In this document: one piece after another, positions 14,026-31,763 of the stretch | How the letters are laid out: each line of letters starts with the position of its first letter | Position numbering within the stretch: position 1 is the first letter of the stretch | Origin: Patescibacteria group bacterium | GTDB taxonomy: Bacteria > Patescibacteriota > Patescibacteriia > Magasanikbacterales > GWA2-37-8 | Assembly: GCA_004321885.1 (NCBI GenBank) | Contig: SCQK01000015.1 | Coordinates: forward strand, 1-31,763 | Reading direction: 5' to 3' | Length of the DNA stretch: 31,763 nt | The notes under the pieces: model-generated | What the model saw: only the letters and a program-made list of their open reading frames with translations | The model's database searches: none | Told to the model about the DNA's origin: nothing | Made by a program: the position numbers and the translations under genes

Positions 14026-14847
14026 ATGAATAAAATTTTTAACGAAGATATTTTATTAGGAATAGATAAAATAGAAGACAATTCTATTGATTTAATTTTA
14101 ACTGATCCTCCTTATTGTTTAGGCAAAGATTATGGCAATGATTCTGATCAAAAATCATCTGAGGATTATCTGAACTGGACATATCAATGGATTGATGCGG
14201 TTTTGCCTAAATTAAAAAATAGTGGAAGTTTTTATATTTTTTTAAGCTGGCAATATTCACCAGAAATTTTTTGTTATTTAAAAAAGAAATTACGAATGGT
14301 CAATGAAATTATTTGGGATAGACGAGTGCCAAGCATGGGCGGTTCTACTAGAAAATTTTCATCTGTCCACGACAATATAGGTTTTTTTGTAAAAAATAAT
14401 AATTATTATTTTGATTTAGATAGCATTAGAATTCCCTACGATGAAGAAACTAAAAAAGCAAGAACTCGATCAATTTTTGTTGGAAAAAAATGGTTAGAAA
14501 TGGGCTACAATCCAAAAGATTTATGGAGTACACCAAGAATACACACACAAGACCCTGAAAGAGAAAATCACCCAACCCAAAAACCTTTAGAAATAATTGA
14601 ACGAATGGTAAAAGCAAGTTGTCCTAAAAACGGAATTGTTTTTGATCCATTCATGGGAACCGGAACAACTGCTATCGCTTGCCTATCAAGCAATAGGCAA
14701 TATGTAGGATTTGAAATAAATAAAGATTATCACAAACTAATAACAAATCGAATCAAGAAACATAATAGTTGCCCGACTTTATTTCAACAACAGAAGCAAA
14801 AACAAGGTAATTTGACTCAAGGCATTCACCTATGCACGATAAATTGA
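14026..14847 (+). CDS. DNA methyltransferase, beta-class amino-MTase (N4-cytosine or N6-adenine), type II R-M system M subunit.
   Basis: An N-terminal 'DLILTDPPYCLG' (motif IV, DPPY) precedes a C-terminal 'HPTQKPLEIIERMV...VFDPFMGTGTTAIA' (motif I/SAM binding), giving the circularly permuted beta-class order. The composition is AT-rich. Confidence 0.85.
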   Translation: MNKIFNEDILLGIDKIEDNSIDLILTDPPYCLGKDYGNDSDQKSSEDYLNWTYQWIDAVLPKLKNSGSFYIFLSWQYSPEIFCYLKKKLRMVNEIIWDRRVPSMGGSTRKFSSVHDNIGFFVKNNNYYFDLDSIRIPYDEETKKARTRSIFVGKKWLEMGYNPKDLWSTPRIHTQDPERENHPTQKPLEIIERMVKASCPKNGIVFDPFMGTGTTAIACLSSNRQYVGFEINKDYHKLITNRIKKHNSCPTLFQQQKQKQGNLTQGIHLCTIN

Positions 14848-18579: not shown

Positions 18580-20211
18580 ATGAATCAAGAGCGGGCCCTG
18601 CAAATTTTAAAAACCGGCGCCAATGTTTTTCTGACCGGCGAACCCGGGTCGGGTAAAACGCACACGGTAAACGCTTATGCGCGTTATCTGCGCCAGAGGG
18701 GGATCGCGCCGGCGATTACCGCGTCCACCGGCATAGCCGCCACGCATATCGGCGGTTTTACGATACACTCGTGGAGCGGCATAGGCGTAGCGCCTCGGCT
18801 GGACAGATATTTGCTTGATAAAATTTCCACAAACGAGAGGGTGGTAAAGCGCGCGGGCGCGGCCAAAGTGCTGGTGATAGATGAAGTTTCAATGCTCGGC
18901 CCGGAAACTTTGTCCATGGTTGACGCGGTTTTGCGGGAAATCAAAAGATGCCGCGAGCCGTTTGGCGGCTTGCAAATAATTTTAGTGGGTGATTTTTTTC
19001 AATTGCCGCCGGTGGAAAAAAACCTTCCGGAAATTCAGAATAGTTTACTCCAAGATAGGCCGGCGCGATTCGCCTTTGATTCGCCGGGCTGGAAAAATCT
19101 GCGGCCAATGGTTTGCTATCTCACGGAACAGCATCGGCAGGACGATCCGCAATTTTTGGGTTTGCTTTCCGCCATCCGTGGAAATCGCTTTAGCGACAAT
19201 CATCTATCTTTGATAAACAGCCGTAAAACCGAATCCGCCCAAGCGCCCGATCGCGTTCCCAAACTTTTTTCCCATAACATTGACGTTGGCCGCGTAAACG
19301 ATGAAACATTGTCCAAGCTTCCCGGGCCGGAAAAAACTTTTTTTATGTCATCGCGCGGAAACCCGCGATTGGTTGAATTTTTAATAAAGGGTTGCCTATC
19401 GCCTGAAAAACTTTGTTTAAAAAAGGGCGCGGCCGTGATGTTCACGAAAAATAATCAGGCCGAAGGGTATGTCAACGGCACGCTGGGAGTGGTACAAAAT
19501 TTCAGCGAGTCAGGCGCTCCGATTATAAAAACGCGCGGCGGGCGGTTTATTGATGTGACAGCGGCCGAGTGGGCGCTGGAAGACAACGGACGCGTGCTGG
19601 CGACGATTGAACAATTGCCCCTACGTTTGGCCTGGGCCATTACCGTGCACAAAAGTCAGGGTATGAGTTTGGATGAAGCGACCATGGATTTGAGCCGTGT
19701 TTTTGAATATGGACAGGGATACGTGGCTCTGTCGCGCGTGCGGCGGCTCTCGGGCGTGCATTTGCTGGGCTGGAACGAACGCGCTTTCGCCGTGCACCCG
19801 GAGGTTTTGGAAAAAGATCAGGAGTTTAGAACTTCGTCGTTGGCATCGGAAGAGGCGTTCGCGAAATTGCCGGACGAGGAACTAAAAAAAATGAGCGATA
19901 ATTTTGTCGTGGCCTGCGGAGGCCAGGTCGGTGGCGTCGTGTCCCCCTCCTTTATAAGGAGGGGGCAGGGGGAGGTATTGCAGGGGTCATCGCGGTCGGG
20001 CGGCTTTGATAAAATCCGTCAAGATCACCCAAACGCCTATCGCCCGTGGGAGCCGGAGCAAGACGAAGAATTAAAAAAACTTTTCGCGCGAAAAACATCA
20101 ATCAAGGATATATCAAAAAAACTTGGCCGCAAAAAAGGCGGCATCACTTCGCGCCTGGTGCGTCTGGGCGTTGTTGAAAGCCGCGAGCAAGCCAGGGCAC
20201 AGCGCGGTTAA
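18580..20211 (+). CDS. SF1B PIF1/RecD-like ATP-dependent DNA helicase with a C-terminal HTH-like tail.
   Basis: Walker A 'TGEPGSGKTH', Walker B 'VLVIDEVSMLG' and 'ILVGDFFQLPPV' are present. The C-terminal portion is UvrD_C-like, and the last about 60 aa are 'KKLFARKTSIKDISKKLGRKKGGITSRLVRLGV'. Nucleotides 19943-19965 (B-type palindrome) are in frame, encoding 'VVSPSFIRRGQGE'. Confidence 0.75.
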   Translation: MNQERALQILKTGANVFLTGEPGSGKTHTVNAYARYLRQRGIAPAITASTGIAATHIGGFTIHSWSGIGVAPRLDRYLLDKISTNERVVKRAGAAKVLVIDEVSMLGPETLSMVDAVLREIKRCREPFGGLQIILVGDFFQLPPVEKNLPEIQNSLLQDRPARFAFDSPGWKNLRPMVCYLTEQHRQDDPQFLGLLSAIRGNRFSDNHLSLINSRKTESAQAPDRVPKLFSHNIDVGRVNDETLSKLPGPEKTFFMSSRGNPRLVEFLIKGCLSPEKLCLKKGAAVMFTKNNQAEGYVNGTLGVVQNFSESGAPIIKTRGGRFIDVTAAEWALEDNGRVLATIEQLPLRLAWAITVHKSQGMSLDEATMDLSRVFEYGQGYVALSRVRRLSGVHLLGWNERAFAVHPEVLEKDQEFRTSSLASEEAFAKLPDEELKKMSDNFVVACGGQVGGVVSPSFIRRGQGEVLQGSSRSGGFDKIRQDHPNAYRPWEPEQDEELKKLFARKTSIKDISKKLGRKKGGITSRLVRLGVVESREQARAQRG

Positions 20212-20337: not shown

Positions 20338-21171
20338 TTGTCGGGTATGTCAAAAATTTTGGAAAATATTAAGCAGCGACCATATTTTTCGAAGAACAAT
20401 TTTGTCCTGTACAGGGACAACTGTTTAAATATTCTGGGAAAATTACCAGAGAATTCGGTTGACATGATTTTTGCAGATCCTCCTTATTTGCTTTCGAACG
20501 GCGGAATGACGTGCAATGGGGGGAAAATGGTAAGCGTTGATAAAGGGCAGTGGGATGTGAGTAACGGTTTAAAAAAGGACTGGGAATTTCATTTGAGCTG
20601 GATTAAAGCGTGTCATCGAGTATTAAAGCCATGCGGAACAATTTGGATAAGTGGGACCTATCACTCCATTTATCAATGCGGATTCGCTTTGCAGGTCAAC
20701 AAATTTCATATTTTGAATGATATTGCCTGGTTCAAACCGAATGCGTCTCCAAATTTGAGTTGTCGATTTTTTACTGCTAGCCACGAAACGATTATTTGGG
20801 CTCGGAAAGATAAAAAAGGAAAACACAAATTTAATTATGAGCTAATGAAAAACAGAGACTGGACGGGTGATTTTATAAAAAAACCGAATCTTCAAATGCG
20901 AAGTGTTTGGGCTATTTATCCTCCCAAAAAAGAAGAAAAGATTTTTGGTAAGCACCCCACTCAAAAACCGATAGATTTATTGGTTAGGATTATCCTCGCA
21001 AGCACAGATAAGGGCGACATTGTTTTGGACCCATTTACCGGCTCTTCAACTTCAGGGCTGGCGGCATTTTTGAATGAAAGAAAATTCGTTGGTATTGATT
21101 TGGAAAAAAAATATCTAGATATATCCATTAAACGTTTCAGCAGTTTTAAAAAAGAAGCCCCTCATTTATGA
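20338..21171 (+). CDS. Orphan beta-class DNA amino-methyltransferase (N6-adenine or N4-cytosine).
   Basis: An 'DMIFADPPYLL' (DPPY) motif is N-terminal, and 'HPTQKPIDLLVRIILAST..GDIVLDPFTGSSTSG' is C-terminal. The islet is low-GC (about one-third). No intact REase ORF is adjacent. Confidence 0.85.
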   Translation: MSGMSKILENIKQRPYFSKNNFVLYRDNCLNILGKLPENSVDMIFADPPYLLSNGGMTCNGGKMVSVDKGQWDVSNGLKKDWEFHLSWIKACHRVLKPCGTIWISGTYHSIYQCGFALQVNKFHILNDIAWFKPNASPNLSCRFFTASHETIIWARKDKKGKHKFNYELMKNRDWTGDFIKKPNLQMRSVWAIYPPKKEEKIFGKHPTQKPIDLLVRIILASTDKGDIVLDPFTGSSTSGLAAFLNERKFVGIDLEKKYLDISIKRFSSFKKEAPHL

Positions 21172-21303: not shown

Positions 21304-23616
21304 ATGGCGCAAAAAGTTTTCACGACGACAAAAACCCCACCCCCTGCCACCGCCGCGAGGCGGGGCCCCGCCGTGGCGGTGGCCCCTCCCCTAAAAGGGG
21401 AGGGGGCCAACTGGATTCCCGCCTCCGCTGGAATGACAACTTTAGAAAAATTAGCCCGGATGTTGCGGGCCCTGATATTCGCCTCGGTGGAAGCCGGCCA
21501 ATCAGGCCATCCGGGCGGCAGCAGTTCCAAGGTGGAGCAATTTTTAACAATGCTCCTCGGCGGTTTTGTGGCTTTTGACCCGGCCAATCCTAAAAATCCC
21601 GGGCGCGACCGCGTGGTGTGGAGCTCTGGCCATTGTACGCCTTTGCTCTACGGCGGTCTGGCCATGCTCTATGAAGCCATGCGGCGCGAGGGCAGGCAAT
21701 TTTCCAAAGCCGCTGTGGGCGCCGTGTTTCCCGAAGACCTGGCCAGCTTTCGCCAGACCCACGGCTTGCCCGGGCATGCTGAAAGCGTGTATCCGCTGGT
21801 GGATGTTTCCACCGCCTCATCAGGCCACGGGCTGTCAGCCGCGGTTGGGATAGCCATGGCACACAAATCCAGTGGTCTTGATACAAAAATTTGGGTGCTC
21901 ATGGGTGATGCCGAAACTGAAGAAGGCATCAGCTACGAAGCGCGCAATGTGGCCGCGGCTTCGGGCCTAAACAATGTTATTGTTTCTTTGGATTACAACG
22001 GCTTTGGCATAGACGGCCCCATCACCGAGGCCATGGTTTCCAGCCCGGGCGCGCAGTGGTCGGCCCTGGGCTGGAATGTGCTCATAGCCGACGGCCATGA
22101 TTTTTCCGCCCTGGCCGCGGCCTACGCTAAAGCACAGCGCGCGGACAAGCCCACGGTGGTGGTTTGCCGCACCATCAAAGGCAAGCATTATGGGGCGCGG
22201 GAAAACAGCCATTCTTCGCACGGCACGCCCTTGCCTCATGACGAGTATGCCGCGGCAGTCAAAAAATTAGGGTTTGATATAAAAGGAGAAAAGGGCAAGG
22301 CCATCGCGGACATAGAAAAAATTATAGACCAGCTGGGCGAACGCGAGGCTGATTTTATTTCCAAAGCGCTCAAAAAATGCGCGGCCAAAATCAAACCCGA
22401 AGAAGAGCTGGTAAAAAAAATGAAAACCGCCCTGCCGGGCAGGCCGTTTAAGGGCGTTCTGAATGTGCAGCGGCCGAAAAAATTGTCGCCCGAACTGGTG
22501 TTTGCTCCGGGCGCCAATGTCAGCGGGCGCAAGGCGGCCCAGGCCTGGTGCAAATGGCTGATGACCCAGAGCGCGTTTGTGTTTGCCGGCGCCGGCGACG
22601 TCAGCAAGTCCGTACTCACTGCCGCGGCGGAAAACGTGTACGGCGTTATCGGACCGGCCAATCCGCTGGGCCGCGGCATTCGCTTTGGCATTGCCGAGGC
22701 CAACATGGGCATGGTTGCCAGCGCGCTGTCGCAGGAAATTTTGCCCGGCGGCATTCGGCCCTCTTGTATTTTTGGCACCTACAGCGTGTTCGCCCCCATG
22801 ATGGCCAACAGCATTCGCATGTCTTTAATTGACAGAAAAATAAATAAAGACCGGCGCGGATTTTTTGTGGCTTTGGCGTCTCACGACGGACCAGAAACAG
22901 GCGAAGACGGCCCCACACATCAGGGTCTTTACTGGATGTCGCTTTTTGACGCCTATCCGGGCATAAAAGTGTACAAGCCCGCCGACGCCAACGAAACAAT
23001 AGAAATGCTTTTTCACGCCCTCCAAATCGGCGAGCCGATAGTTTTGTCTTTGCCGCGCGCGGACTGGCCCGTGATAGACCGCGCTTGCGCGCCGGCGGCC
23101 AGCGAAGCGAATAACGGCGCGTATGTTTTTAAGGATTACACCCCCTCCTCGCCACCACACCAAAGCATTTGGTGTGGTGGCGAGCCTCCCCCTTCTAAAG
23201 GGGGAGGGAAAACGGCTGCTCCACAAATAAGGGGAGGGAAACGTATCGTGCTCGCCGTCTGCGGAGGCCAGCTCTTGCAAAACACGCTGGCCATACTGCC
23301 AGACTTGGAAAAGAAAAAATTGAACGTCAAAATTATCGTGGTAACGGCGCCCGAGCTGTTTGAGGATTTGCGCGCTCGCGACCCGAAAAAAGCGCGCGCT
23401 ATTTTAAGCGACGAAGAACGCGCCGACATAATCACCCTGCACAACGGCTGGCCCGGATTTTTGCGCCGATTTTTACTGCCGGAAAATTACGCCGCGCGCG
23501 AAATCGGAGTCGCGGATTTTTTGGTTTCCTGCAAACCGGCCGACGCCTACGACATCGCCGAACTTTCGCCCAAAGACCTAATAAAAAAAATCCTAAAAAA
23601 TGTCAAAGATAACTAA
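21304..23616 (+). CDS. tkt: Transketolase (TPP-dependent). The likely true start is the ATG at 21433, because the first 43 codons of the long ORF lie in C- and B-type palindromic elements. It also carries an internal in-frame A/B element.
   Basis: Motifs 'SGHPGGSSS', 'GDAETEEGISYEA' and 'GEDGPTHQG' are transketolase hallmark motifs. Nucleotides 21346-21405 are palindromic repeats. Nucleotides 23150-23240 (A plus B elements) encode 'PSSPPHQSIWCGGEPPPSKGGGKTAAPQIRGGK'. Confidence 0.85.
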   Translation: MAQKVFTTTKTPPPATAARRGPAVAVAPPLKGEGANWIPASAGMTTLEKLARMLRALIFASVEAGQSGHPGGSSSKVEQFLTMLLGGFVAFDPANPKNPGRDRVVWSSGHCTPLLYGGLAMLYEAMRREGRQFSKAAVGAVFPEDLASFRQTHGLPGHAESVYPLVDVSTASSGHGLSAAVGIAMAHKSSGLDTKIWVLMGDAETEEGISYEARNVAAASGLNNVIVSLDYNGFGIDGPITEAMVSSPGAQWSALGWNVLIADGHDFSALAAAYAKAQRADKPTVVVCRTIKGKHYGARENSHSSHGTPLPHDEYAAAVKKLGFDIKGEKGKAIADIEKIIDQLGEREADFISKALKKCAAKIKPEEELVKKMKTALPGRPFKGVLNVQRPKKLSPELVFAPGANVSGRKAAQAWCKWLMTQSAFVFAGAGDVSKSVLTAAAENVYGVIGPANPLGRGIRFGIAEANMGMVASALSQEILPGGIRPSCIFGTYSVFAPMMANSIRMSLIDRKINKDRRGFFVALASHDGPETGEDGPTHQGLYWMSLFDAYPGIKVYKPADANETIEMLFHALQIGEPIVLSLPRADWPVIDRACAPAASEANNGAYVFKDYTPSSPPHQSIWCGGEPPPSKGGGKTAAPQIRGGKRIVLAVCGGQLLQNTLAILPDLEKKKLNVKIIVVTAPELFEDLRARDPKKARAILSDEERADIITLHNGWPGFLRRFLLPENYAAREIGVADFLVSCKPADAYDIAELSPKDLIKKILKNVKDN

Positions 23617-26143
23617 ACAATACCCCTCCCCAGCCCTCCCCTTATTAAGGGAAGGGGGGCCTTTTGACTCCCCCTTATTAAGGGGAAGATTAAGCGGGGG
23701 TAATTACCGCGGCTTGTCTTCGGCCGAAGCGGAAAAATTATTGAAACAGTACGGACTCAATGAGCCGCCCAAGCCCAAAAAGAGAGGCGTCATCGGGCGC
23801 GCGCTGAAAATTATTTCCGAGCCCATGATGCTTTTGATTTTGGCCACGGCCGCGATCTATTATTTTGTCGGCGATTTTATTGAGTCGCTGATCTTTGCCG
23901 GCTCGGTCGTCCCCATCGCCATCATGGAATTTTTACAGCAAAGGCGCACGGACCGGGCCCTGGAAGAATTGGATAAGCTGGCGGTTTCCAGCGCGCAGGT
24001 TTACCGCGACAACAAAATTAAAATTATTGATTCCAAATACATTGTGCCCGGCGATTTGGCGCACCTGACCGCCGGAGACAAAATTCCAGCCGACGGCTGG
24101 TTGCTGGAATCGCCCGGTCTGCTCGTGGATGAGTCGTCGCTCACCGGCGAATCGTTGGCCGCGGCCAAGGGCGCGTCGCTAAAAAAAGAGGCGGACGAAA
24201 ACAAGCTCTGGCAAGGCACCATCGTCACTTCGGGTGAAGGCGACATGGTGATTTCGGCCACCGGGTCCGCCACCGAGTATGGCCGGCTCGGTCTTTTGTT
24301 GGGTCAAATCAAAAAAACCAAAACACCCTTGCAGTTCAAAATCAGCCGTTTTCTAAAAATCGTGGCCATAGGCGGCATCGCGGCGGCCGTTATCGCGGGA
24401 TTGTTTTTGTGGCTCACGCGCGGCTGGGCGGCCGGTGTTTTAGGCGGGCTGACCATCGCCATGTCGCTCATTCCCGAAGAAATCCCCATTGTCTTTAGCG
24501 TGTTCTTGATATTGGGAGTATTGCGCATGTCGCGCCGCAACGCCCTGATTAGGGAAATGGTGCTGGTGGAAACCCTGGGTTCGGTAACTGTTATTTGCAC
24601 GGATAAAACCGGCACCCTCACCGAGGGTCGCATGTCTTTGGAAAAAATTTACAGACCCCCGCACATACAGCTTAAAGAATTTATAGAAGCCATGCTGTTG
24701 GCCCTGGAGCGCGTGGCCGTGGACCCTATTGAAGTAGAAGCGCAAAAATTCGCGCGTGAATCGTCTATTGAACCGCACGCCCTCTACGACGAATGCCGGC
24801 TGGCGCAAGACAAGCCGTTTGATTCCAAAAGCAAATCCGTGCACCATCTGTGGCAGAGAAAAAACGGCGAATTTTGGCAATACAGCGCCGGCGCCCCGGA
24901 ATACATCATTGAACAGAGCGCAATGAGTAAAAAAGACAAAGACAAAGCGAGCGGCGCGTACGTCGAAGCCTCGGAGCGCGGCTACCGGGTAGTGGCCGTG
25001 GCGCGAAAAAAAATGAAGGAAAAAGAAAAAATCAGTACCGGCGGGTATGAGTTTGTGGGCCTGATGCTCATGAGCGACCCGCCGCGGGCCGAAGTGAAAG
25101 AAGCGATTGATATTTGCCAGAAAGCCGGCATCCGCGTGGTGATGATTACCGGCGACAACAAACTGACGGCCCACAGCGTGGCCGACAGTATTGGTTTGAT
25201 TCACGACGAGGAAATCATTGACGGCGCGGAAATAGAAAAAATATCGCCCGAAGCCCTGAAAGAACGGGTGAAGCATTGCCATATTTTCGCGCGCGTCAAG
25301 CCCGAACAAAAACACAATATCGTCAGCGCCCTGCAGGAAGCGGGCGAGGTGGTGGCCATGACCGGCGACGGAGTCAACGACGCGCCGGCGCTGAAAAAAG
25401 CCAGCATCGGCGTGGCCATGGGCGTGCGCGGCACCGAGGCGGCGCGCCAGGCCGCGGGCATGGTTTTGCTGGATGACAATTTTTCCACTATCGTCAAAGC
25501 GGTGCGCGAAGGCCGCAGAATCTTTGACAATATGCGTCAGGCTTTTTTGTTTTTGCTTACTTTTCACATTCCGATTGTCGGTTTGGCGTTCGCCCCGCTT
25601 TTTTTCGGCCAGCCTTTGATATTTTCGCCCATTCACATAATTTTTTTGGAATTTATTTGCGACCCGGTTTCGGTGCTGGGCTTTGAGCGCGAGCCGGCGC
25701 GGCATTCGCTGATGAAAGAAGGGCCGCGGCCCGCAGGCGAACCGATTATTGGGCCATGGCACTGGCTGCTCGCGCTGCTGCGCGGCGGAGCCATCTTTTT
25801 GACGAGCTTTGGCTTTTATTATTATTTCGGCGCCCGCCTGGGCGATTACGAGCTTGGCCGCAGCGCAACGTTTTTCGCTTTGGTTTTATCGCAGTCATTG
25901 CTTTTGCTGTTCACGCGCGAGTGGCATCAATTCAAAACAAACAAAGTAATTTTGGGGCTGGCGCTTGGCACGATACTTTTCATATCAATGATTATCGTCT
26001 TGCCGACCCTGCGCGGCCTATTTTATTTTGTGCCGCTGTCCCTGAAAAATTACGGCTTGATTTTCGGCGTGGTGTCGCTGGCCATGATATTTATCGCCGC
26101 GCTGACCGGGCGAATTAAACGGGTGGCCTATGTACAGCGCTGA
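23600..26143 (+). CDS. P-type cation-transporting ATPase (type II/III, Ca2+/Mg2+-like; not CopA-type).
   Basis: Motifs 'ICTDKTGTLT', 'MITGDN', 'TGDGVNDAPALKKASIGVAMG' and the TM4 motif 'IPEEIP' are present, with no CPC or HMA domain. The first about 35 codons (23618-23700) are B-type palindromic repeats, so the start codon is uncertain. A 'GLSSAEAEKLLKQYGLNEP' segment is the usual N-terminus of this class. Confidence 0.85.
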   Translation: MSKITKQYPSPALPLLREGGPFDSPLLRGRLSGGNYRGLSSAEAEKLLKQYGLNEPPKPKKRGVIGRALKIISEPMMLLILATAAIYYFVGDFIESLIFAGSVVPIAIMEFLQQRRTDRALEELDKLAVSSAQVYRDNKIKIIDSKYIVPGDLAHLTAGDKIPADGWLLESPGLLVDESSLTGESLAAAKGASLKKEADENKLWQGTIVTSGEGDMVISATGSATEYGRLGLLLGQIKKTKTPLQFKISRFLKIVAIGGIAAAVIAGLFLWLTRGWAAGVLGGLTIAMSLIPEEIPIVFSVFLILGVLRMSRRNALIREMVLVETLGSVTVICTDKTGTLTEGRMSLEKIYRPPHIQLKEFIEAMLLALERVAVDPIEVEAQKFARESSIEPHALYDECRLAQDKPFDSKSKSVHHLWQRKNGEFWQYSAGAPEYIIEQSAMSKKDKDKASGAYVEASERGYRVVAVARKKMKEKEKISTGGYEFVGLMLMSDPPRAEVKEAIDICQKAGIRVVMITGDNKLTAHSVADSIGLIHDEEIIDGAEIEKISPEALKERVKHCHIFARVKPEQKHNIVSALQEAGEVVAMTGDGVNDAPALKKASIGVAMGVRGTEAARQAAGMVLLDDNFSTIVKAVREGRRIFDNMRQAFLFLLTFHIPIVGLAFAPLFFGQPLIFSPIHIIFLEFICDPVSVLGFEREPARHSLMKEGPRPAGEPIIGPWHWLLALLRGGAIFLTSFGFYYYFGARLGDYELGRSATFFALVLSQSLLLLFTREWHQFKTNKVILGLALGTILFISMIIVLPTLRGLFYFVPLSLKNYGLIFGVVSLAMIFIAALTGRIKRVAYVQR

Positions 26144-26981
26144 GGTTTTAACCCAGGTGCACAAAAAATTGCAGGATATTTTTCCGGGCGGCCTGGTGCT
26201 GCTCGGCGGCAGTTATCTCTACGGCGAGGCTAGCGAAAAAAGCGACGTGGATTTTTACGCCATTATTTCCTGGCGTGATTTTTTTGAGCGCGGCGAATTT
26301 CTGCACCGCATCAAAGCCCTCAAGCTGGATTATCCCGAGCTGAAAGTCACCTTTATGCCGCGCCTGCTCTTCCGGCGCGGTTGGTACTATGTTTATGGCA
26401 AAGACCTCGGCGGCGCCTTGCATTGCTCAAAGATAAACCGCAAGATTATTTTTAGAAACGCCGTCAAGCTGTCGTATTTTCATTACGTTAATTCTTTGTT
26501 GGCCGAAGAGCCGCGCCAGAAAAAAATCAGCGTGCGCAAATCAGCCCAGCAACTGACCCTGGCCGCCTGGGCCGCGTCGGCGCGTGAAATGAAAAGCCCG
26601 CTTTTTCTGGTCGAGAATTTACAACGGGGGATTGGGGATTTGCCGGCCGAAAAAAAAGAAATTTTAAGCGCTATTATCGGCCATAAGTTAAACGACCAGT
26701 GGTGGCAGGACAAAAATTTATCCGAGCTCGGACGCGCGATTTTTAACTGCATTGTTTTTATTTATAATCTGGAAGGGAAGAAATTTTTGAATTTTTCCAT
26801 CGTGAATTATCTGCTGTACAACGCGCGTTTTTTGGCCAAGGGCAATTACAAATTTTTATTCCGCAATCCGGACAAGTACTTGCTCGGCAAAATTTTCAAC
26901 TGTCTTACCTCGCCGGCTTGCGATATTCGCGAACTGTCGGGCCAATTGCGCGAAGTCATCTTTCCAATATATATTGTGTAA
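26130..26981 (+). CDS. Pol-beta-superfamily nucleotidyltransferase-domain protein (ANT/KNTase-like).
   Basis: The N-terminus carries 'LVLLGGSYLYGEASEKSDVDFYAI' (G[SG]x9-13Dh[DE]), with a helical C-terminal domain. The start overlaps the ATPase stop by 14 nt. Confidence 0.55.
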   Translation: MYSAEVLTQVHKKLQDIFPGGLVLLGGSYLYGEASEKSDVDFYAIISWRDFFERGEFLHRIKALKLDYPELKVTFMPRLLFRRGWYYVYGKDLGGALHCSKINRKIIFRNAVKLSYFHYVNSLLAEEPRQKKISVRKSAQQLTLAAWAASAREMKSPLFLVENLQRGIGDLPAEKKEILSAIIGHKLNDQWWQDKNLSELGRAIFNCIVFIYNLEGKKFLNFSIVNYLLYNARFLAKGNYKFLFRNPDKYLLGKIFNCLTSPACDIRELSGQLREVIFPIYIV

Positions 26982-27024
26982 TTCGCAAAAGTGTGCTACG
27001 CTTTTATTATCAAGCGAAGCGAGA

Positions 27025-27051
27025 GAAATGGTCGCCTGAGGCGACCATTTC
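27025..27051. terminator. Perfect 12-bp-stem hairpin between the nucleotidyltransferase gene and the blaI-like gene.
   Basis: The sequence is gaaatggtcgcc tga ggcgaccatttc. No T-tract follows, so it may be a terminator or a regulatory structure. Confidence 0.3.
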
Positions 27052-27092
27052 CGAGCGAGCGCGGATAAAATACCCCGTAGGGTTTATTTACT

Positions 27093-27476
27093 ATGCGGCC
27101 ATCATCGGGTTTGGGAACACTGGAGCGAAAAATAATGGAAACAATCTGGGACGCCGGCGACTCGGCATCGGTGCGCGCTGTTTTTGATTGCCTGAAAACG
27201 AAAAAAAAGATTTGCTATACCACGGTGATGACTATAATGACCCGCTTGTGCGAAAAAAACATGCTTAGGCGCGCCATGGGCGAAGACGGCGCGTATATTT
27301 ACAGCGCCGCGCAAAGCAAAAAAGATTTTTTGAGATCGGTGTTTAAGCGCACCGTGGGCGCCCTGGTGGGGCAATTCGGCGAGCTGGCCGTGGCCCAGTT
27401 TATAGACGCGGTGGAATCCAGCAACCTGAAAAACTTAAAAGAGTGGCGCGAGAAATTGAAGAAGATTCTGAAATAA
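27093..27476 (+). CDS. BlaI/MecI/CopY-family winged-helix transcriptional repressor.
   Basis: An 'LGTLERKIMETIWDAGDSASVRAVFDCL....YTTVMTIMTRLCEKNMLRR' segment matches the Penicillinase_R fold. The protein is 127 aa. An M56-peptidase gene lies immediately downstream. Confidence 0.8.
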   Translation: MRPSSGLGTLERKIMETIWDAGDSASVRAVFDCLKTKKKICYTTVMTIMTRLCEKNMLRRAMGEDGAYIYSAAQSKKDFLRSVFKRTVGALVGQFGELAVAQFIDAVESSNLKNLKEWREKLKKILK

Positions 27477-27500
27477 ATTCAGAATGACAATGAATATTGA

Positions 27501-28529
27501 ATGAGCGAAAATAATTTTAAGGCAAAAGCGAACGCGCTGTTCGCGTTTATAGTTATCGTCGGCCTGATATTTAGCGCCGCGATGTTTAGGCTGGCGCTAA
27601 AATACATTCCAACGTTTGGCAATTTCCTAACCTCGGCCAGGCATGGGTTGGACGCGCTTTGCGGTTGCGGGGCGCATTTAAGTTTTTCCACCCACCCCTA
27701 TATCTGGAGCGGCCTGCTGGCGGTCGGAATTATTATAAGCGGATTCTTTGTGGCGGCCGGAGCGCGCGGGCTAGGGTATTTTTTTAGAAATAGAAAGTAT
27801 TTAAAATCGCGCCTGGCCCGGGCCGTAAAGCCGGCCGGCAAACTATCGCGCGCGGCGCGCGCCCTGACCCTGGAAGACAAGGTCCGGCTGGCGCCCTCCG
27901 CGGCCGTGGAGGCTTTTTGCTGCGGTTTTTGGCGCCCAAAAATTTACGTTAGCGGCGGCCTGGCCGCGCGGCTGAATCTAACGGAGTTGGTATCCGTATT
28001 ATCGCACGAAAAACAGCACCTGCTGTCGCGCGACCCGCTCAAAATTTTTATTGCTAATCTGGCGCGCAAAATATTTTTCTTTGTGCCCGGATTAAAAAGC
28101 CTGGTCAAGCGATTTTCGCTTTACAGCGAACTGTCGGCCGACGCGCGCGCCACCGCCGGTTTTAAGAATAAAATTTATCTGGCCTCGGCCCTGCTCAAAA
28201 TAATTAAAACAAAAGAAAATTTCGCCTGGCAGACCCCGTTTGAAGCATTGCCCCTGTCCGGGTTTGCCAATCTTACCGGAGAACGCATCAGCCAACTGGC
28301 TGATGGAAAAATTGCGCGACACCGCCTTGCTCCAATCAAATCATTCTTCTTATTTTTCGGCGCCGCAGGAACCCTGATTGTGCTGACGTTTGTCCCGATG
28401 CTGTTGCGCGCCGACTGGCTAGACCGCACTGCCAAAGAGACATGCTCGGCTTTTTCGCATACGCACGAGACCCATGCCGCGTCAAAGTCGTGCGCGCAAT
28501 CATCCCGGTACGTGGCAACGAATCCTTAG
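27501..28529 (+). CDS. BlaR1/MecR1-like M56-family membrane metalloprotease (signal transducer), lacking a C-terminal penicillin-binding sensor domain.
   Basis: The N-terminus has TM helices. The zinc motif 'SHEKQHLLSRD' (HExxHxxxxD) is characteristic of BlaR1/M56. The protein is 342 aa with a C-terminal TM and tail only. Confidence 0.75.
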   Translation: MSENNFKAKANALFAFIVIVGLIFSAAMFRLALKYIPTFGNFLTSARHGLDALCGCGAHLSFSTHPYIWSGLLAVGIIISGFFVAAGARGLGYFFRNRKYLKSRLARAVKPAGKLSRAARALTLEDKVRLAPSAAVEAFCCGFWRPKIYVSGGLAARLNLTELVSVLSHEKQHLLSRDPLKIFIANLARKIFFFVPGLKSLVKRFSLYSELSADARATAGFKNKIYLASALLKIIKTKENFAWQTPFEALPLSGFANLTGERISQLADGKIARHRLAPIKSFFLFFGAAGTLIVLTFVPMLLRADWLDRTAKETCSAFSHTHETHAASKSCAQSSRYVATNP

Positions 28530-28546
28530 CTGTGGATAAGTTTCAC

Positions 28547-28584
28547 TTGACAACTTTTCCTGCCTACTACATAATGTAGTAGGC
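28547..28584 (+). promoter_or_regulatory. Promoter (TTGACA-17-CATAAT) with an overlapping 23-nt perfect palindrome containing TACA-N3-TGTA. This is a candidate BlaI/CopY-type operator controlling the downstream redox cluster.
   Basis: TTGACA is at 28547-28552, CATAAT at 28570-28575, and the palindrome gcctactacaTAAtgtagtaggc at 28562-28584. The BlaI/MecI/CopY operators are TACA/TGTA dyads that overlap the -10. Confidence 0.55.
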
Positions 28585-28596
28585 ATTGAATTTTTA

Positions 28597-29355
28597 ATGT
28601 CATTGCGACTATTATATATGGCAAACTTAAATAGGTTAACGCGGCCGCGCCAATACTTGGCGGTCGTAAATATAATTGCTCTAACGGTTTTTCTTTTTGC
28701 GACGGTCACCAATCAGGTGGTTATCGCCTCCACCAGCAGCGCCCTGGGCGGCACGCGTTATATGGCCAAACTGCTTTCCCTGCTTGGCGGAGGGCTGAAA
28801 CTTTCGGGCGACGCGGCCGCGGACGCGATGAAGTTAGTGCTCTCGGCCGGCGTGCCCGCGGTGTACGGCGCGGAAATGGGTGTGGACTTTGAACATGTCC
28901 AGCCGGCGATAGACAAAATGAAAATCTACGACCCGACCTACGGGGCGCAAAAAATCGTTCTCGCCGGCGATGACCTGAAACGTTATATAGAAATCGCCCT
29001 GAAAATTTCCTGCGAATATTGTTGTGGAGCCAAAAGCATTATCCGCGAAAACGGCGAAGCGGCCTGCGGTTGCGCCCACTCGCAAGCCATGCGCGGGTTG
29101 GCCGCTTACCTGCTCAAAAACCACTCGCAAATGAGCAATGATGAAATTTTGCGCGAACTGGCGCGCTGGAAAGGCATGTATTTTCCCAAACAGATGATGC
29201 AGAAAATGAGCGGGCATCTGCAAAGCGGAAGTTTCACGCCCGATACGGCCGCGCTGATTATGGGAATGAAACTGCCCAAGTATGGCCAAACCAACGGCGC
29301 GGCCCCGCTTCCGTCCGAAATTAAAGACATGCCTGGAATGGTGGGGGGATGCTAA
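28597..29355 (+). CDS. Membrane-anchored Cys-cluster protein (CEYCCGAK...CGCAHS) with a flexible C-terminal linker ending in MPGMVGGC. An alternative start lies at 28618.
   Basis: An N-terminal hydrophobic anchor 'YLAVVNIIALTVFLFATV' is present, with central Cys motifs. The C-terminal octapeptide is shared with the next ORF. It is the first gene after the candidate operator. Confidence 0.5.
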   Translation: MSLRLLYMANLNRLTRPRQYLAVVNIIALTVFLFATVTNQVVIASTSSALGGTRYMAKLLSLLGGGLKLSGDAAADAMKLVLSAGVPAVYGAEMGVDFEHVQPAIDKMKIYDPTYGAQKIVLAGDDLKRYIEIALKISCEYCCGAKSIIRENGEAACGCAHSQAMRGLAAYLLKNHSQMSNDEILRELARWKGMYFPKQMMQKMSGHLQSGSFTPDTAALIMGMKLPKYGQTNGAAPLPSEIKDMPGMVGGC

Positions 29356-29378
29356 ACTCAAAAAAATAATTTTATTCT

Positions 29379-29663
29379 ATGGAAAATTTATCGCCAACGC
29401 CAGCAGGGCAAACGGAACTTCAGCAGATAAAGCAGGAAATTTTAAGCGAGCTCGGCGCCAAGCCCAAAGCCGGACCGCTCAACTGGGGCAGTCTGCTGGT
29501 AACGATTATTCTGCTCGCGCTGACGGCGCTGTCCATCGTGCAGGTGGCGCAGTCGTACACAATCATGAACAAGGTGCGCGCGGGCGGAGGCACAGTCGCG
29601 CCAGCGGCGGCCGGGGGTTCCAGCGCCAACAGCGCCATGCCCGACATGGTGGGCGGATGTTAA
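29379..29663 (+). CDS. Small single-TM protein (94 aa) with a Gly/Ala/Ser linker and a C-terminal MPDMVGGC tail.
   Basis: A TM 'LLVTIILLALTALSIV' is preceded by a Lys-rich segment, suggesting N-in/C-out topology. The tail is 'AGGGTVAPAAAGGSSANSAMPDMVGGC*'. At the DNA level it ends catgcccgacatggtgggcggatgttaa, and the previous gene ends catgcctggaatggtggggggatgctaa. Confidence 0.5.
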   Translation: MENLSPTPAGQTELQQIKQEILSELGAKPKAGPLNWGSLLVTIILLALTALSIVQVAQSYTIMNKVRAGGGTVAPAAAGGSSANSAMPDMVGGC

Positions 29664-29672
29664 TTACGGTAT

Positions 29673-30485
29673 ATGCAAATTGAATTTAAGCTCGGGACGC
29701 AAAAATTTTTAATCGCGGCCGTTTTAATGGCAACAAGCCTGGCGGTCGGCATTTTCGTGTCCGCGCGCGCCAATTCTGCTCTGAAAGTCAACATTGCGGC
29801 CAGAACCGAAGCCGCGCGTCCGGCCAAATTAAGTGTAATCGCAGTGGTGGACTATGACTGTAAAGAATGCTCGCAAGCGGATGATTATTGGAAAACGCTT
29901 TCAGCGCTGAATATGGACAGCAACGGCTATAAAACTATTTCCGCCGACATTGACGAGGGCAAAAATTTAATCGCCAAATACAACATTACCAAACTCCCGT
30001 CAGTGATTGTTAGCGGCGAAACCAGCAAAAACGAGGATGTTAAAACTTTTCTGCAAAAAAATGGCGTAACAGCCGGCGACGCCATCGTTCTAAAAACCCG
30101 CGCTCCGTATCAGGAAATAAAAACCGGCGCCGTGCGCGGAATCACACAACTTGCGGAAATAGGGGACAGCCGCTGTAAAAATTGCTACAGCCCCGCGGAG
30201 CATGAAAAGATATTAAAAGGCATGGGAATTTATTTTGGCGAACCGCAAAAGTTGGACTATTGGAGCGGCGCCGGAAAAAATTTAGCCGTCAAATACAAGA
30301 TGAAACAAATTCCCACGATAGTTTTAACCGGCGATCTGGCGGCCTACGACGGCTTTGCCAATATTTGGAAGCAGGTCGGCACTGTGGAAAAAGACGGGGC
30401 TCATATTTTTAGAAACGGCGTCGCCAGCATGGGCGTTTACCGGGATTTGCAAACCGACAAAATCGTTGAGCCGCCCAAGCAATAG
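29673..30485 (+). CDS. Exported tandem thioredoxin-like protein with two CxxC motifs.
   Basis: A signal-anchor 'FLIAAVLMATSLAVGIFV' is present, followed by 'VVDYDCKECSQ' and 'GDSRCKNCYSP' about 100 aa apart, each in Trx/DsbA-like context. Confidence 0.55.
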   Translation: MQIEFKLGTQKFLIAAVLMATSLAVGIFVSARANSALKVNIAARTEAARPAKLSVIAVVDYDCKECSQADDYWKTLSALNMDSNGYKTISADIDEGKNLIAKYNITKLPSVIVSGETSKNEDVKTFLQKNGVTAGDAIVLKTRAPYQEIKTGAVRGITQLAEIGDSRCKNCYSPAEHEKILKGMGIYFGEPQKLDYWSGAGKNLAVKYKMKQIPTIVLTGDLAAYDGFANIWKQVGTVEKDGAHIFRNGVASMGVYRDLQTDKIVEPPKQ

Positions 30486-30486
30486 T

Positions 30487-30918
30487 ATGAATAAAATGCT
30501 AATAGCGATCGGGGCGGTTTTACTGATAGGGCTATCTATTTTTGGCTACTTGAAGGCCGTGCCCAAGCCGGCCAGCGACAACGCGCCGCGGCCCCGGGCA
30601 AAAATAGAAAATCCGGCTTTTGATTTTGGCGAAATCGTTTTTGGCGTGATGGCCACGCACACGTTCAAGCTCTTTAATAATGGCAACGCGCCTTTGGAAA
30701 TAAAGCGGGTGGCCACTTCCTGCTCGTGCACCACGGCCGAGGTGAGCAAAAAAATGATTGAGCCCGGGCAGTCGGCTGAAATAAGCGTGCGCTACGACAC
30801 CAAAGCCATGGGTTCTGGCCCGCATGGCGTCGGATTGCAAGAACGCATTATCTATATAAAGACCAATGACCCCGCAAACCCGCAGGTGGAAGCCAATATT
30901 TCCGCTTTTGTGAAGTAA
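30487..30918 (+). CDS. DUF1573-family protein. The start is at the ATG at 30487; the longer track ORF from 30355 overlaps the preceding gene.
   Basis: An N-terminal TM is present. An 'FDFGEI..G....HTFKLFNNGNAPLEIKRVATSCSCTTAEV....PGQSAEISVRYD' segment matches the DUF1573 consensus (F.F.N.G..L.I..V..SCGCT...PG). Confidence 0.6.
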   Translation: MNKMLIAIGAVLLIGLSIFGYLKAVPKPASDNAPRPRAKIENPAFDFGEIVFGVMATHTFKLFNNGNAPLEIKRVATSCSCTTAEVSKKMIEPGQSAEISVRYDTKAMGSGPHGVGLQERIIYIKTNDPANPQVEANISAFVK

Positions 30919-30921
30919 CTA

Positions 30922-31641
30922 TTGCCGATAATTATGTTCCTCCTCACTGCCATCAACGCCTCAAACCCCAAAATAATGCTGCCGCTCGTGGCCGGCACCG
31001 GATTTTTAGATGGCATCCATCCCTGCGCCATTGCCATTCTGATTTTTTTTATCGCCTTTCTCATCTCCATGCAAAAGGCGTTCAAAAATATCCTGGTAAT
31101 GGGCCTGGTGTATGTGGGCGTGATATTTTTAACCTACCTGGCCGTGGGCGTGGGCCTGCTTTCAGGCATAATGTTTTTCGGCCAGCATCATTTTTTCGCC
31201 AAGGTCGGTTCTTATCTTCTCATTTTGCTGGGTGTTTTGTCTTTGCGTGACGGTTTTTTGCCCCGCTTTCGCTTAGGATTAAAGATGCCGAAATTTTCCA
31301 ATGACAAAATTCGCGCCCTGCTGGAAAAGGCCACGCTCCCGACTGTGGCCGGCGCCGCCTTTCTGGTGGGCCTCTGCTCCATTCCCTGCTCGGGCGGCAT
31401 TTACGCGGCCATCACGTCTCTGCTCGCTTCGCAGACTACTTTCTTCACCGGTTTTTTGTATCTCATTTTGTATAATTTGATGTTTATCGCGCCGCTCGTT
31501 ATACTGCTCCTCGTGGCGGCCAATCCTTTTACGCTTGTAAAATTGGGCGAATGGCAGCAACGCAACCGGCGGCAGCAGCTGATTATTATGGGCATCGCCA
31601 TGCTGGCGCTCGGTATTTTATTTTTAATATTTATAGTATAA
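30922..31641 (+). CDS. CcdA/DsbD-family transmembrane thiol-disulfide electron transporter.
   Basis: The protein is a multi-TM with one Cys in TM1 (GIHPCAIAILIFF) and a Cys pair in a later TM (LCSIPCSGGIYAAI), as in DsbD_2/CcdA proteins. It is the terminal gene of the Trx-like cluster. Confidence 0.55.
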   Translation: MPIIMFLLTAINASNPKIMLPLVAGTGFLDGIHPCAIAILIFFIAFLISMQKAFKNILVMGLVYVGVIFLTYLAVGVGLLSGIMFFGQHHFFAKVGSYLLILLGVLSLRDGFLPRFRLGLKMPKFSNDKIRALLEKATLPTVAGAAFLVGLCSIPCSGGIYAAITSLLASQTTFFTGFLYLILYNLMFIAPLVILLLVAANPFTLVKLGEWQQRNRRQQLIIMGIAMLALGILFLIFIV

Positions 31642-31763
31642 TAATATAAGGGATGATTAAATTAATTCGGTTGAAAAACTTTTGGTTTACAGGCAATGGT
31701 TTTACGCATACGAATTAAGCAGGCGCTCCTTACAATTAAAGATTTAGCCGTTCGCAAGTGCCG

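Follow-up and report, generated by a model that had tools for sequence, protein, structure and literature searches.

A conserved BlaI/BlaR1-type regulator pair and probable palindromic operator preceding a cluster of thiol-redox envelope genes in Patescibacteria

We examined a DNA stretch of 31,763 nucleotides (the window), which is contig SCQK01000015.1 of a metagenome-assembled genome from the Patescibacteria (candidate phyla radiation, CPR); the host is described as an ultra-small groundwater bacterium. Between positions 27093 and 31641 the window carries seven genes on the forward strand. The first encodes a BlaI-like winged-helix repressor (27093–27476) and the second, 24 bp away, a membrane zinc protease of the M56/BlaR1 type (27501–28529). 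The remaining five encode envelope proteins to which we refer as P3, P4, Trx2 (with two CxxC motifs), the DUF1573 protein and the CcdA-like protein. A promoter whose -10 element is embedded in a perfect palindrome separates the two groups. An earlier note on this DNA had read the arrangement as a BlaI/BlaR1-type pair controlling an envelope thiol-redox cluster through the palindrome, and our analysis supports that reading: the locus is a real, conserved regulatory unit.

The repressor is a protein of 127 amino acids in the BlaI/MecI/CopY family, as the earlier note had proposed. It matches the Pfam family Penicillinase_R (PF03965) with an E value of 5.5e-21 (75.5 bits, cut-off 22.6), and its best solved relatives, aligned over the full length, are BlaI of Mycobacterium tuberculosis (2g9w, 2e-10) and BlaI of Staphylococcus aureus (1sd4, 4.8e-6). 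The cleavage site of S. aureus BlaI (N101-F102) pairs with Q102-F103 of the window repressor, inside a conserved AQFID motif, and F103 is kept in at least 95% of 31 aligned sequences. The C-terminal CxC-x4-6-CxC copper/zinc site of CopY was not found in the repressor, which has cysteines only at positions 33, 41 and 53, and the match to the NCBIfam model CopY_TcrY (TIGR02698) reaches 36.3 bits, far below the cut-off of 121.95. Direct metal sensing of the CopY type is therefore ruled out, and the repressor is not itself a metal sensor.

The promoter following the protease gene consists of the -35 hexamer TTGACA (28547–28552, forward strand), a spacer of 17 nt and the -10 hexamer CATAAT (28570–28575, forward strand). 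It agrees with the sigma-70 consensus at 11 of 12 positions, the best such match in the region 26900–31763, and a TTGACA-like -35 is present in 29 of 31 aligned promoters. The -10 hexamer lies in the centre of the palindrome TGCCTACTACAT-A-ATGTAGTAGGCA (28561–28585, no strand assigned), in which the earlier note had also placed it; the palindrome is indeed perfect, its two 12-nt arms being 100% complementary to each other, but it spans 25 nt rather than the 23 nt given there. Within it lies the conserved core CTACTACATAATGTAGTAG (28564–28582, likewise without strand). The sequence TACANNNTGTA occurs a single time in the window, compared with 0.10 expected occurrences. TACA and TGTA form the recognition core of this repressor family (PMC1935004, PMC7253601), and this core is present in the palindrome.

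We fetched 80 loci with a P3 homologue from species-representative genomes via the P3 alignment and searched their open reading frames (ORFs) with the window proteins; the sequence examined for operator copies totals 0.91 Mb. Individual loci are given below by their L numbers. The 39 closest P3 loci are all of Patescibacteria type, several of them mislabelled in their records, and in 32 of these blaI and the M56 gene lie directly upstream of P3, P4 and Trx2. Copies of the DUF1573 gene and a CcdA-like gene are often found further downstream in these relatives. The palindrome recurs at the equivalent position, the point that the earlier note had fixed in advance as the one on which the regulatory link could fall: the core CTACTAYA-N3-TRTAGTAG precedes the first gene of the cluster by 13–47 bp at about 30 loci and always overlaps the -10 element. 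With 14 fixed and two two-fold positions, approximately 0.001 chance matches to this core are expected in the 0.91 Mb, against the roughly 30 seen, and cores without mismatches occur almost only at the cluster promoter or right after the M56 gene. The 16 core positions are conserved across genomes in which the P3 proteins are only 50–60% identical.

The aligned promoters share a common layout of yTGTGGATAA, 6–9 nt, TTGACA, 17 nt, and a -10 element in the operator centre that varies among TACAAT, TACACT, TATACT and CATAAT. At six loci a gene for a GILT-like thioredoxin with a GGCGG tail is inserted, and the operator then precedes that gene. At L026, L106, L111, L125, L149 and L164 the operator stands before the target genes and is not preceded by the end of any gene. 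In about 19 relatives a weaker copy, ATACTAC-N5-GTAGTAx, overlaps the blaI -10 element, which indicates autoregulation in those organisms. The autoregulatory copies that the earlier note proposed to look for are thus present in relatives but not in the window, where no second operator copy was found upstream of blaI at up to three mismatches. In L007 the intergenic operator is missing and a copy is found 10 bp before blaI, so that blaI, the M56 gene and P3 would form one autoregulated transcript. Judged from this comparison of sequences, it is very likely that the repressor controls the operon through the palindrome.

Additional perfect copies of the core are found 4–5 kb upstream of blaI at L013:502–520, L016:305–323, L023:431–449, L039:792–810 and L165:6288. 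Some of these adjoin a TfoX-like gene at its 3' end, others a YbaN-like gene and RmuC, and neither a -35 element nor the 9-mer described next was recognisable at them.

Seven nucleotides upstream of the -35 hexamer is a conserved 9-mer, TGTGGATAA (28531–28539, forward strand). It is the exact reverse complement (9/9) of TTATCCACA, the DnaA-box consensus. Of 31 orthologous promoters, 23 carry an exact copy, out of a total of 33 copies in the 0.91 Mb. In relatives (L002–L040) the 9-mer lies 6–9 nt upstream of the -35 element, and at L026 and L125 it is inverted and directly abuts the operator on the opposite side. It was not found at the operator copies upstream of blaI. A second factor, possibly DnaA, may act at the 9-mer.

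The region upstream of blaI in the window contains another perfect palindrome, GAAATGGTCGCCT-G-AGGCGACCATTTC (27025–27051), with 13-nt arms, 42 nt from the blaI start. It is present as a single copy in the window (0.03 expected) and a T-run does not follow it. This palindrome could be the terminator of the preceding nucleotidyltransferase gene, or it could be a control site for blaI and the M56 gene that replaces the autoregulatory operator of the relatives. We also considered ATACCCCGTAGGGTTTAT (27070–27087) as half of a CsoR box and set it aside, as it does not match TACCC-N2-8-GGGTA. The start of the nucleotidyltransferase-domain gene (26130–26981) overlaps the stop of a P-type ATPase gene (23600–26143), both upstream of blaI. 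Further upstream in the window are genes for N6/N4 DNA methylases (14026–14847 and 20338–21171) and a PIF1-like helicase (18580–20211).

The second regulatory gene encodes a protein of 342 amino acids that matches Peptidase_M56 (PF05569; E 1.7e-13) and carries HEKQH at residues 169–173. We modelled it with AlphaFold using 11 aligned sequences. The protease core is confident, and the best Foldseek matches of the model are the cryo-EM structures of S. aureus BlaR1 (8ext, 8exq, 8exs and 8exr), with E 3.8e-5 and a probability of 1.00 for 8ext. Neither Pfam nor NCBIfam profile searches found a transpeptidase or penicillin-binding protein (PBP) domain, PF00905-type or other, and the earlier note had likewise called this a protease without a sensor domain. 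The match to the NCBIfam model blaR1_generic is 17.6 bits (cut-off 400), and only 40 residues extend beyond the last hydrophobic segment. Beta-lactam sensing is ruled out, as the PBP domain is missing and no beta-lactamase or PBP gene is present across the more than 80 loci.

Conservation of the protease was read from ORFs in the fetched loci; word-indexed homologue searches gave just 3 and 9 proteins. Residues C54, C56, H169, E170, H173, E210 and C315 never vary, and C331 is more than 90% conserved. Hydropathy indicates three hydrophobic segments (residues 13–31, 68–86 and 284–302). The segment between the second and the third (87–283) holds the HExxH motif and 35 lysines and arginines and should, on these grounds, be cytoplasmic. 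The loop between the first two transmembrane segments (32–67), which contains C54-G-C56, and the C-terminal tail (303–342), which contains C315 and C331, would then lie outside the cell. With this predicted topology the four cysteines are the only conserved extracytoplasmic features of the protein. BlaR1 of S. aureus has an extracellular loop, EL1, immediately before the helix entering the protease domain, and this loop passes on the signal jointly with the C-terminal sensor domain (PMC9834060). At the positions matching EL1 and the sensor domain the window protein has only cysteines and histidines. A conserved LS(F/G)F motif at residues 252–255 may, speculatively, match the BlaR1 autocleavage site S283-F284 (PMC9834060).

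The five genes that follow the operator are separated by 23, 9, 1 and 3 nt. The first four products each have a single N-terminal hydrophobic anchor, with the cysteine motifs beyond the anchor, as judged from hydropathy. P3 (28618–29355, forward strand, with an alternative upstream ATG at 28597) crosses the membrane once, belongs to an unnamed family and is identical to the hypothetical protein EPN28_04720 [Patescibacteria group bacterium] at NCBI. Its ectodomain contains invariant CEYCC and ACGCAHS motifs and six cysteines, 14 methionines and four histidines, and it ends in an invariant PxMVGGC tail (MPGMVGGC here). We found 866 homologues. Pfam and NCBIfam profile searches with P3 gave no match, and the AlphaFold model (AF2; mean confidence, pLDDT, 69.7) has no Foldseek match in the PDB at E <1, so that a function cannot be assigned by fold. 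The family spans Patescibacteria, DPANN archaea, and a few loci of Nitrospirota and Anaerolineae.

P4 (29379–29663, forward strand) is a single-pass membrane protein of 94 amino acids that follows P3 in more than 40 loci. Its tail (recorded both as LPDMVGGC and as MPDMVGGC) is conserved in 34 homologues, and P3 and P4 both end in MxGGC tails, which bears out the two tail-sharing membrane proteins of the earlier note. Trx2 (29673–30485, forward strand) is membrane-anchored and has two thioredoxin-like halves with CxxC motifs at C63/C66 and C168/C171. Both motifs are conserved in 46 sequences. The earlier note had called the product a tandem thioredoxin-like protein; the profile matches are weak. 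Thioredoxin_3 is matched below threshold (5e-4, 20.4 bits against a cut-off of 24.8), NCBIfam PDO_seleno_TRX with 8.9e-5 (21.9 bits against 185), and the PDO structures 1j08 and 1a8l with approximately 6e-3. The fourth product (30487–30918, forward strand) is membrane-anchored, has the conserved motif TSC(G/S)C and is, as had been claimed, a DUF1573 protein (PF07610; 1.1e-21, 77.1 bits, cut-off 26.1); it also matches the NCBIfam OS_HP2 (seleno)protein family with 2.5e-20. The last gene (30922–31641, forward strand) encodes a polytopic membrane protein with the Pro-Cys motifs HPC (residue 35) and IPC (residue 155), which correspond to NPCA and FPCSGG motifs conserved in 25 homologues. The earlier label CcdA was overstated for this protein: the two conserved Pro-Cys motifs stand, but the sole Pfam match is SfLAP (PF11139, 5.7e-10), there is no match to DsbD_TM or DsbD_2 even at E 10, and no relative was found in the PDB.

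In Woesearchaeota and related DPANN archaea, blaI and the M56 gene are divergent from P3 (L055, L058, L062, L065, L072 and L080; for example L058:6846–6911). In the intergenic region there, two TATA-box/BRE-like elements flank a different TGTA/TACA palindrome, TGTAAAGCTTTACA, and at some of these loci TTACA-N5-TGTAA is also found beside the P3 start. The genes have therefore stayed linked although domain, promoter type and orientation changed. At eight archaeal loci without BlaI (L057, L061, L063, L067, L071, L074, L076 and L081) a conserved palindrome, TGAAACTAGTTTCA, lies upstream of P3, and the adjacent gene encodes a membrane-anchored MarR/TrmB-like winged-helix protein (for example L057:4424–4921). 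This suggests a third type of regulator for the P3 cluster. Another three loci without BlaI or M56 (L010:3530–3610, L019:6860–6925 and L036:6830–6910) have a long hairpin, AATCTTACTTT...AAAGTAAGATTTTTTG, and a T-run before P3. An Rfam scan of the long hairpins upstream of P3 returned no family at gathering thresholds. This hairpin may be a plain terminator or a regulatory leader.

We also scanned metagenome contigs for the exact 16-base core, which returned 120 loci. A BlaI or M56 homologue is present in 34 of these and lies within 300 bp of the site in 28. The remaining matches, about 86, are probably due to chance rather than part of the regulon, because their GC content is mixed, they have no related genes, and the collection is very large. 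Where the module is present, the operator is followed by P3, by a gene for a DsbA-like, membrane-anchored protein with a CPFC motif, or by CsoR. In L099 and L193 the operator follows the M56 gene, and the genes beyond it encode CsoR, a fusion of HMA, DsbD_2 and cupredoxin, and a CopA-type P-type ATPase.

Both the module and P3 are associated with copper genes. At loci without BlaI, P3 is found near CPC-type P1B ATPases with HMA, HMBD and YHS domains. The gene order at L050 (445–1529) is a CsoR box (TACCCCAGGTTGGGGTA), CsoR and P3, and at L019 (2003–7705) it is a CsoR box, CsoR, a His-rich small protein and CopA, with P3 further on. CsoR-type boxes (TACCC-N-GGGTA) and CsoR genes before P3 or CopA-P3 are also present at L042:6330 and L052:6482, and all these genomes are without BlaI/M56. 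Since CsoR boxes and CsoR genes directly precede it, P3 is elsewhere under the control of a copper-sensor family. CsoR (PF02583), HMA-DsbD_2-cupredoxin and SHOCT are recurrent, Pfam-confirmed neighbors of the cluster; Met-rich neighbors, called by composition and without a Pfam match, recur as well. The fusion of HMA, DsbD_2 and a C-terminal cupredoxin-like domain is found at L005:12958–14277, L018:9759–11084 and L099:3907–5691, and it physically ties a DsbD-type thiol conduit to copper binding. The earlier note had suggested that the module was recruited not for beta-lactamase but for extracytoplasmic disulfide reduction or the handling of metals. These gene neighborhoods support the suggestion and point, more sharply, to copper or thiophilic metals.

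We consider it likely that the locus as a whole is a proteolytic derepression switch of the BlaI/BlaR1 type. A dimer of the BlaI-like repressor on the 19–25 bp palindrome CTACTAYA-N3-TRTAGTAG would occlude the -10 element and keep the five-gene operon off. The M56 protease, which has no penicillin-binding domain, would expose its Cys-Gly-Cys loop and the two-cysteine C-terminal tail outside the cell. A thiol-reactive envelope signal would alter these outer cysteines, with metal bridging or oxidation as the most likely change; candidate signals are copper or some other thiophilic metal, or else thiol oxidation caused by such metals. The altered cysteines would activate the cytoplasmic zinc-protease domain, which would in turn cut the repressor near Q102-F103 in the dimerisation helix. 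With the operon on, the cell would produce membrane-anchored Cys- and Met-rich proteins together with a reducing pathway, by which surface thiols would be reduced, metal buffered, or both.

Several observations weigh against this model. The TACA and TGTA elements are separated by three nucleotides here (N3), and by four in L033 and L037, and the spacing thus differs from the canonical TACA-N2-TGTA box of BlaI, MecI and CopY (PMC1935004, PMC7253601), although the family core itself is present as the earlier note stated. The topology of the protease is drawn from hydropathy and charge, and the AF2 model has pLDDT values below 50 at residues 45–65 and 288–342, that is, in the cysteine loop and the tail. 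The four-cysteine site therefore stays a candidate. The window contains no copper gene, its contig ends 122 bp past the operon, and its P-type ATPase is of the Cation_ATPase_N/C (P2) type and not a heavy-metal ATPase. A recognisable metal gene is found within 7 kb at just 14 of 38 BlaI-containing genome loci. Finally, in many relatives the palindrome arms lengthen with compensatory changes, which a pure protein-binding site would not need.

The last point bears on a second role that the palindrome might have. In addition to serving as the DNA operator, the element could form an RNA hairpin that ends read-through from blaI and the M56 gene and insulates the operon from the regulator promoter. 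The window palindrome scored as terminator-like, reading TGCCTACTACATAATGTAGTAGGCA and then TTGAATTTTT, with a dG of -15.7 kcal/mol and T at 7 of the 10 following bases. Sites after the M56 gene have longer arms than the copies upstream of blaI (median arm length 10 nt against 7 nt; median dG -9.4 against -4.4 kcal/mol), and the arms are often extended by differing, mutually complementary sequences. A combination of terminator-like features with operator conservation would explain such extended arms. It would also fit L007, which has no intergenic element and whose only operator stands before blaI, where the whole set would be a single transcript. However, about one third of the sites are short-armed (7–9 nt, dG above -9 kcal/mol) and have no clear U-tract. 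We therefore treat the dual role as a tentative proposal, rather less probable than not.

The nature of the signal also has a competing explanation. Instead of a metal, the protease could respond to disulfide or oxidative stress in the envelope, or to the redox state of the substrates of the pathway. The regulon is mainly thiol-redox in character: in the window it includes the two CxxC motifs of Trx2, the CxC of the DUF1573 protein and the CcdA-like protein, and relatives carry DsbA-like CPFC, GILT-like, DsbD_TM and AhpC/TSA proteins. The CGCxxH motif of the M56 loop resembles the ACGCAHS motif of P3, and no metal gene was seen in the flanks of 24 of the 38 BlaI-containing loci. On the other hand, the operator with BlaI and M56 directly precedes CsoR-CopA-type genes in several contigs, and in other genomes P3 forms part of CsoR/CopA operons. 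Envelope copper toxicity works largely via thiols; the two explanations are not exclusive, and they overlap mechanistically. With metal genes at 14 of 38 loci, none in the window, and a thiol-redox regulon, we consider copper or another thiophilic metal to have an even chance of being the signal, and disulfide or oxidative stress to be a less likely candidate.

It is improbable that the palindrome is bound by some other regulator, or that the M56 protein does no sensing (it could, for instance, be constitutively active, and BlaI be controlled by other means). The conserved 9-mer TGTGGATAA implies that at least one further factor may act at the promoter, and the AF2 model yields no confident sensor structure. 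However, the operator, blaI and the M56 gene travel together across Patescibacteria and metagenome contigs with differing targets, and it is because of this co-inheritance that we disfavor both alternatives. The adjacency of blaI and the M56 gene is kept, the TACA/TGTA core is the recognition motif of the BlaI family (PMC1935004), and the protease is the sensor in the members studied (PMC9834060, PMC7896320).

The idea that the palindrome is nothing but the intrinsic terminator of the blaI-M56 transcript, with a coincidental likeness to a BlaI box, would account for the terminator-like score and the long, variable arms, but terminators conserve structure and not sequence, and this idea is highly improbable given that 16 core positions are conserved as sequence, that the same core lies over the blaI -10 element and occurs where no gene ends upstream, and that the tail of the orthologous sites has T at 5 of 10 positions compared with 4 of 10 in the AT-rich background.

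BlaI/BlaR pairs that serve signals other than beta-lactams are already known (PetRP, PMC7896320; CenIR, PMC13492132), and the derepression model leaves this general concept unchanged. The family is known above all from beta-lactam resistance, and few such non-antibiotic members have been studied (PetRP, CenIR and M. tuberculosis BlaIR). The unusual points of the system described here are the N3-spaced operator within the -10 element, the cysteine-only candidate sensor, the tails of P3 and P4 found across CPR and DPANN, the occurrence in two domains, and the highly conserved 9-mer beside the -35 element, identical to a DnaA box. The system offers a clean operator, N3-spaced and inside the -10 element, that is validated by comparison, and a putative sensor reduced to a few cysteines would make it a tractable model for M56 switching without a ligand-binding domain. 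It also defines a candidate regulon in the Patescibacteria, where transcriptional regulation is almost undescribed, documents the same blaI-M56/P3 module in DPANN archaea, and may offer a first clue to the function (copper/thiol defence of the envelope) of the unannotated P3 family with its more than 860 homologues, and of P4, which shares its tail.

A more far-reaching proposal would combine these points. The protease would be a minimal BlaR1 homologue that senses copper or the thiol-redox state directly through four extracytoplasmic cysteines (CGC at the EL1 position and two in the short tail that stands in for the penicillin-binding domain). The surface proteins P3 and P4, of a hitherto undescribed family with invariant Met-x-Gly-Gly-Cys tails and CxxCC/CGCAH motifs, would form a new extracytoplasmic copper- or thiol-buffering system shared by CPR and DPANN, and the regulator would have moved across domains and been re-wired to archaeal promoters. 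We put this forward as a doubtful, though possible, extension.

The pairs BlaI-BlaR1 and MecI-MecR1 of S. aureus and Bacillus licheniformis share with the window pair the PF03965 fold of the repressor, the HExxH...E motif and 8ext-type fold of the M56 protease, the adjacency of the two genes, a TACA/TGTA dyad overlapping the promoter, and the phenylalanine at P1' of the BlaI cleavage site. In contrast, the window protease has 342 rather than 585 amino acids, no penicillin-binding domain, and three rather than four or more hydrophobic segments, and its operator is of the N3 and not the N2 type. Additionally, the regulators and targets are co-oriented instead of forming a divergon, and the targets are envelope proteins with cysteine motifs instead of beta-lactamase or PBP2a.

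The ScsABCD proteins of Salmonella are linked to copper tolerance and comprise envelope thioredoxin-like proteins and a DsbD-type membrane conduit for reductant. The window operon would likewise pair envelope thioredoxin-like proteins with a candidate DsbD-type conduit, and P3 itself is found in CsoR-box/CsoR/CopA operons of other Patescibacteria. However, the Scs and CsoR-CopA systems are regulated by Cpx or CsoR and not by a BlaI/BlaR pair, and the P3 and P4 proteins with MVGGC tails have no known homologues among them.

CopY/CopR of the Firmicutes belongs to the same repressor family, and it uses a TACA...TGTA box in the control of copper genes (PMC7253601). CopY differs in sensing Cu(I) itself via a C-terminal CxC...CxC, which the window repressor does not have, and in having no partner protease. 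The pairs Rv1846c/Rv1845c of M. tuberculosis and CenIR of Clostridium difficile are similar to the window pair in combining BlaI and BlaR proteins with non-PBP extracellular parts and regulons other than beta-lactamase (PMC13492132), and the CenIR paper describes the sensing domains of BlaR proteins as diverse (PMC13492132). Their regulons and extracellular segments are different ones, and a cysteine-only sensor with a thiol/copper cluster is not described there.

PetR-PetP of Synechocystis is a known copper-responsive pair in which a BlaI-type repressor is combined with a BlaR1-type protease that has no beta-lactam sensor (PMC7896320). Its metal response proceeds by protease-dependent loss of the repressor (PMC7896320), whereas copper dependence would here follow from gene neighborhoods. 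The PetRP regulon consists of plastocyanin/cytochrome c6 and two unknown genes, and PetR also activates (PMC7896320); the likeness is one of description. By analogy, PetRP and the other BlaI/BlaR pairs without a beta-lactam sensor, M. tuberculosis BlaIR and C. difficile CenIR, appear to be the known systems functionally closest to the switch proposed here.

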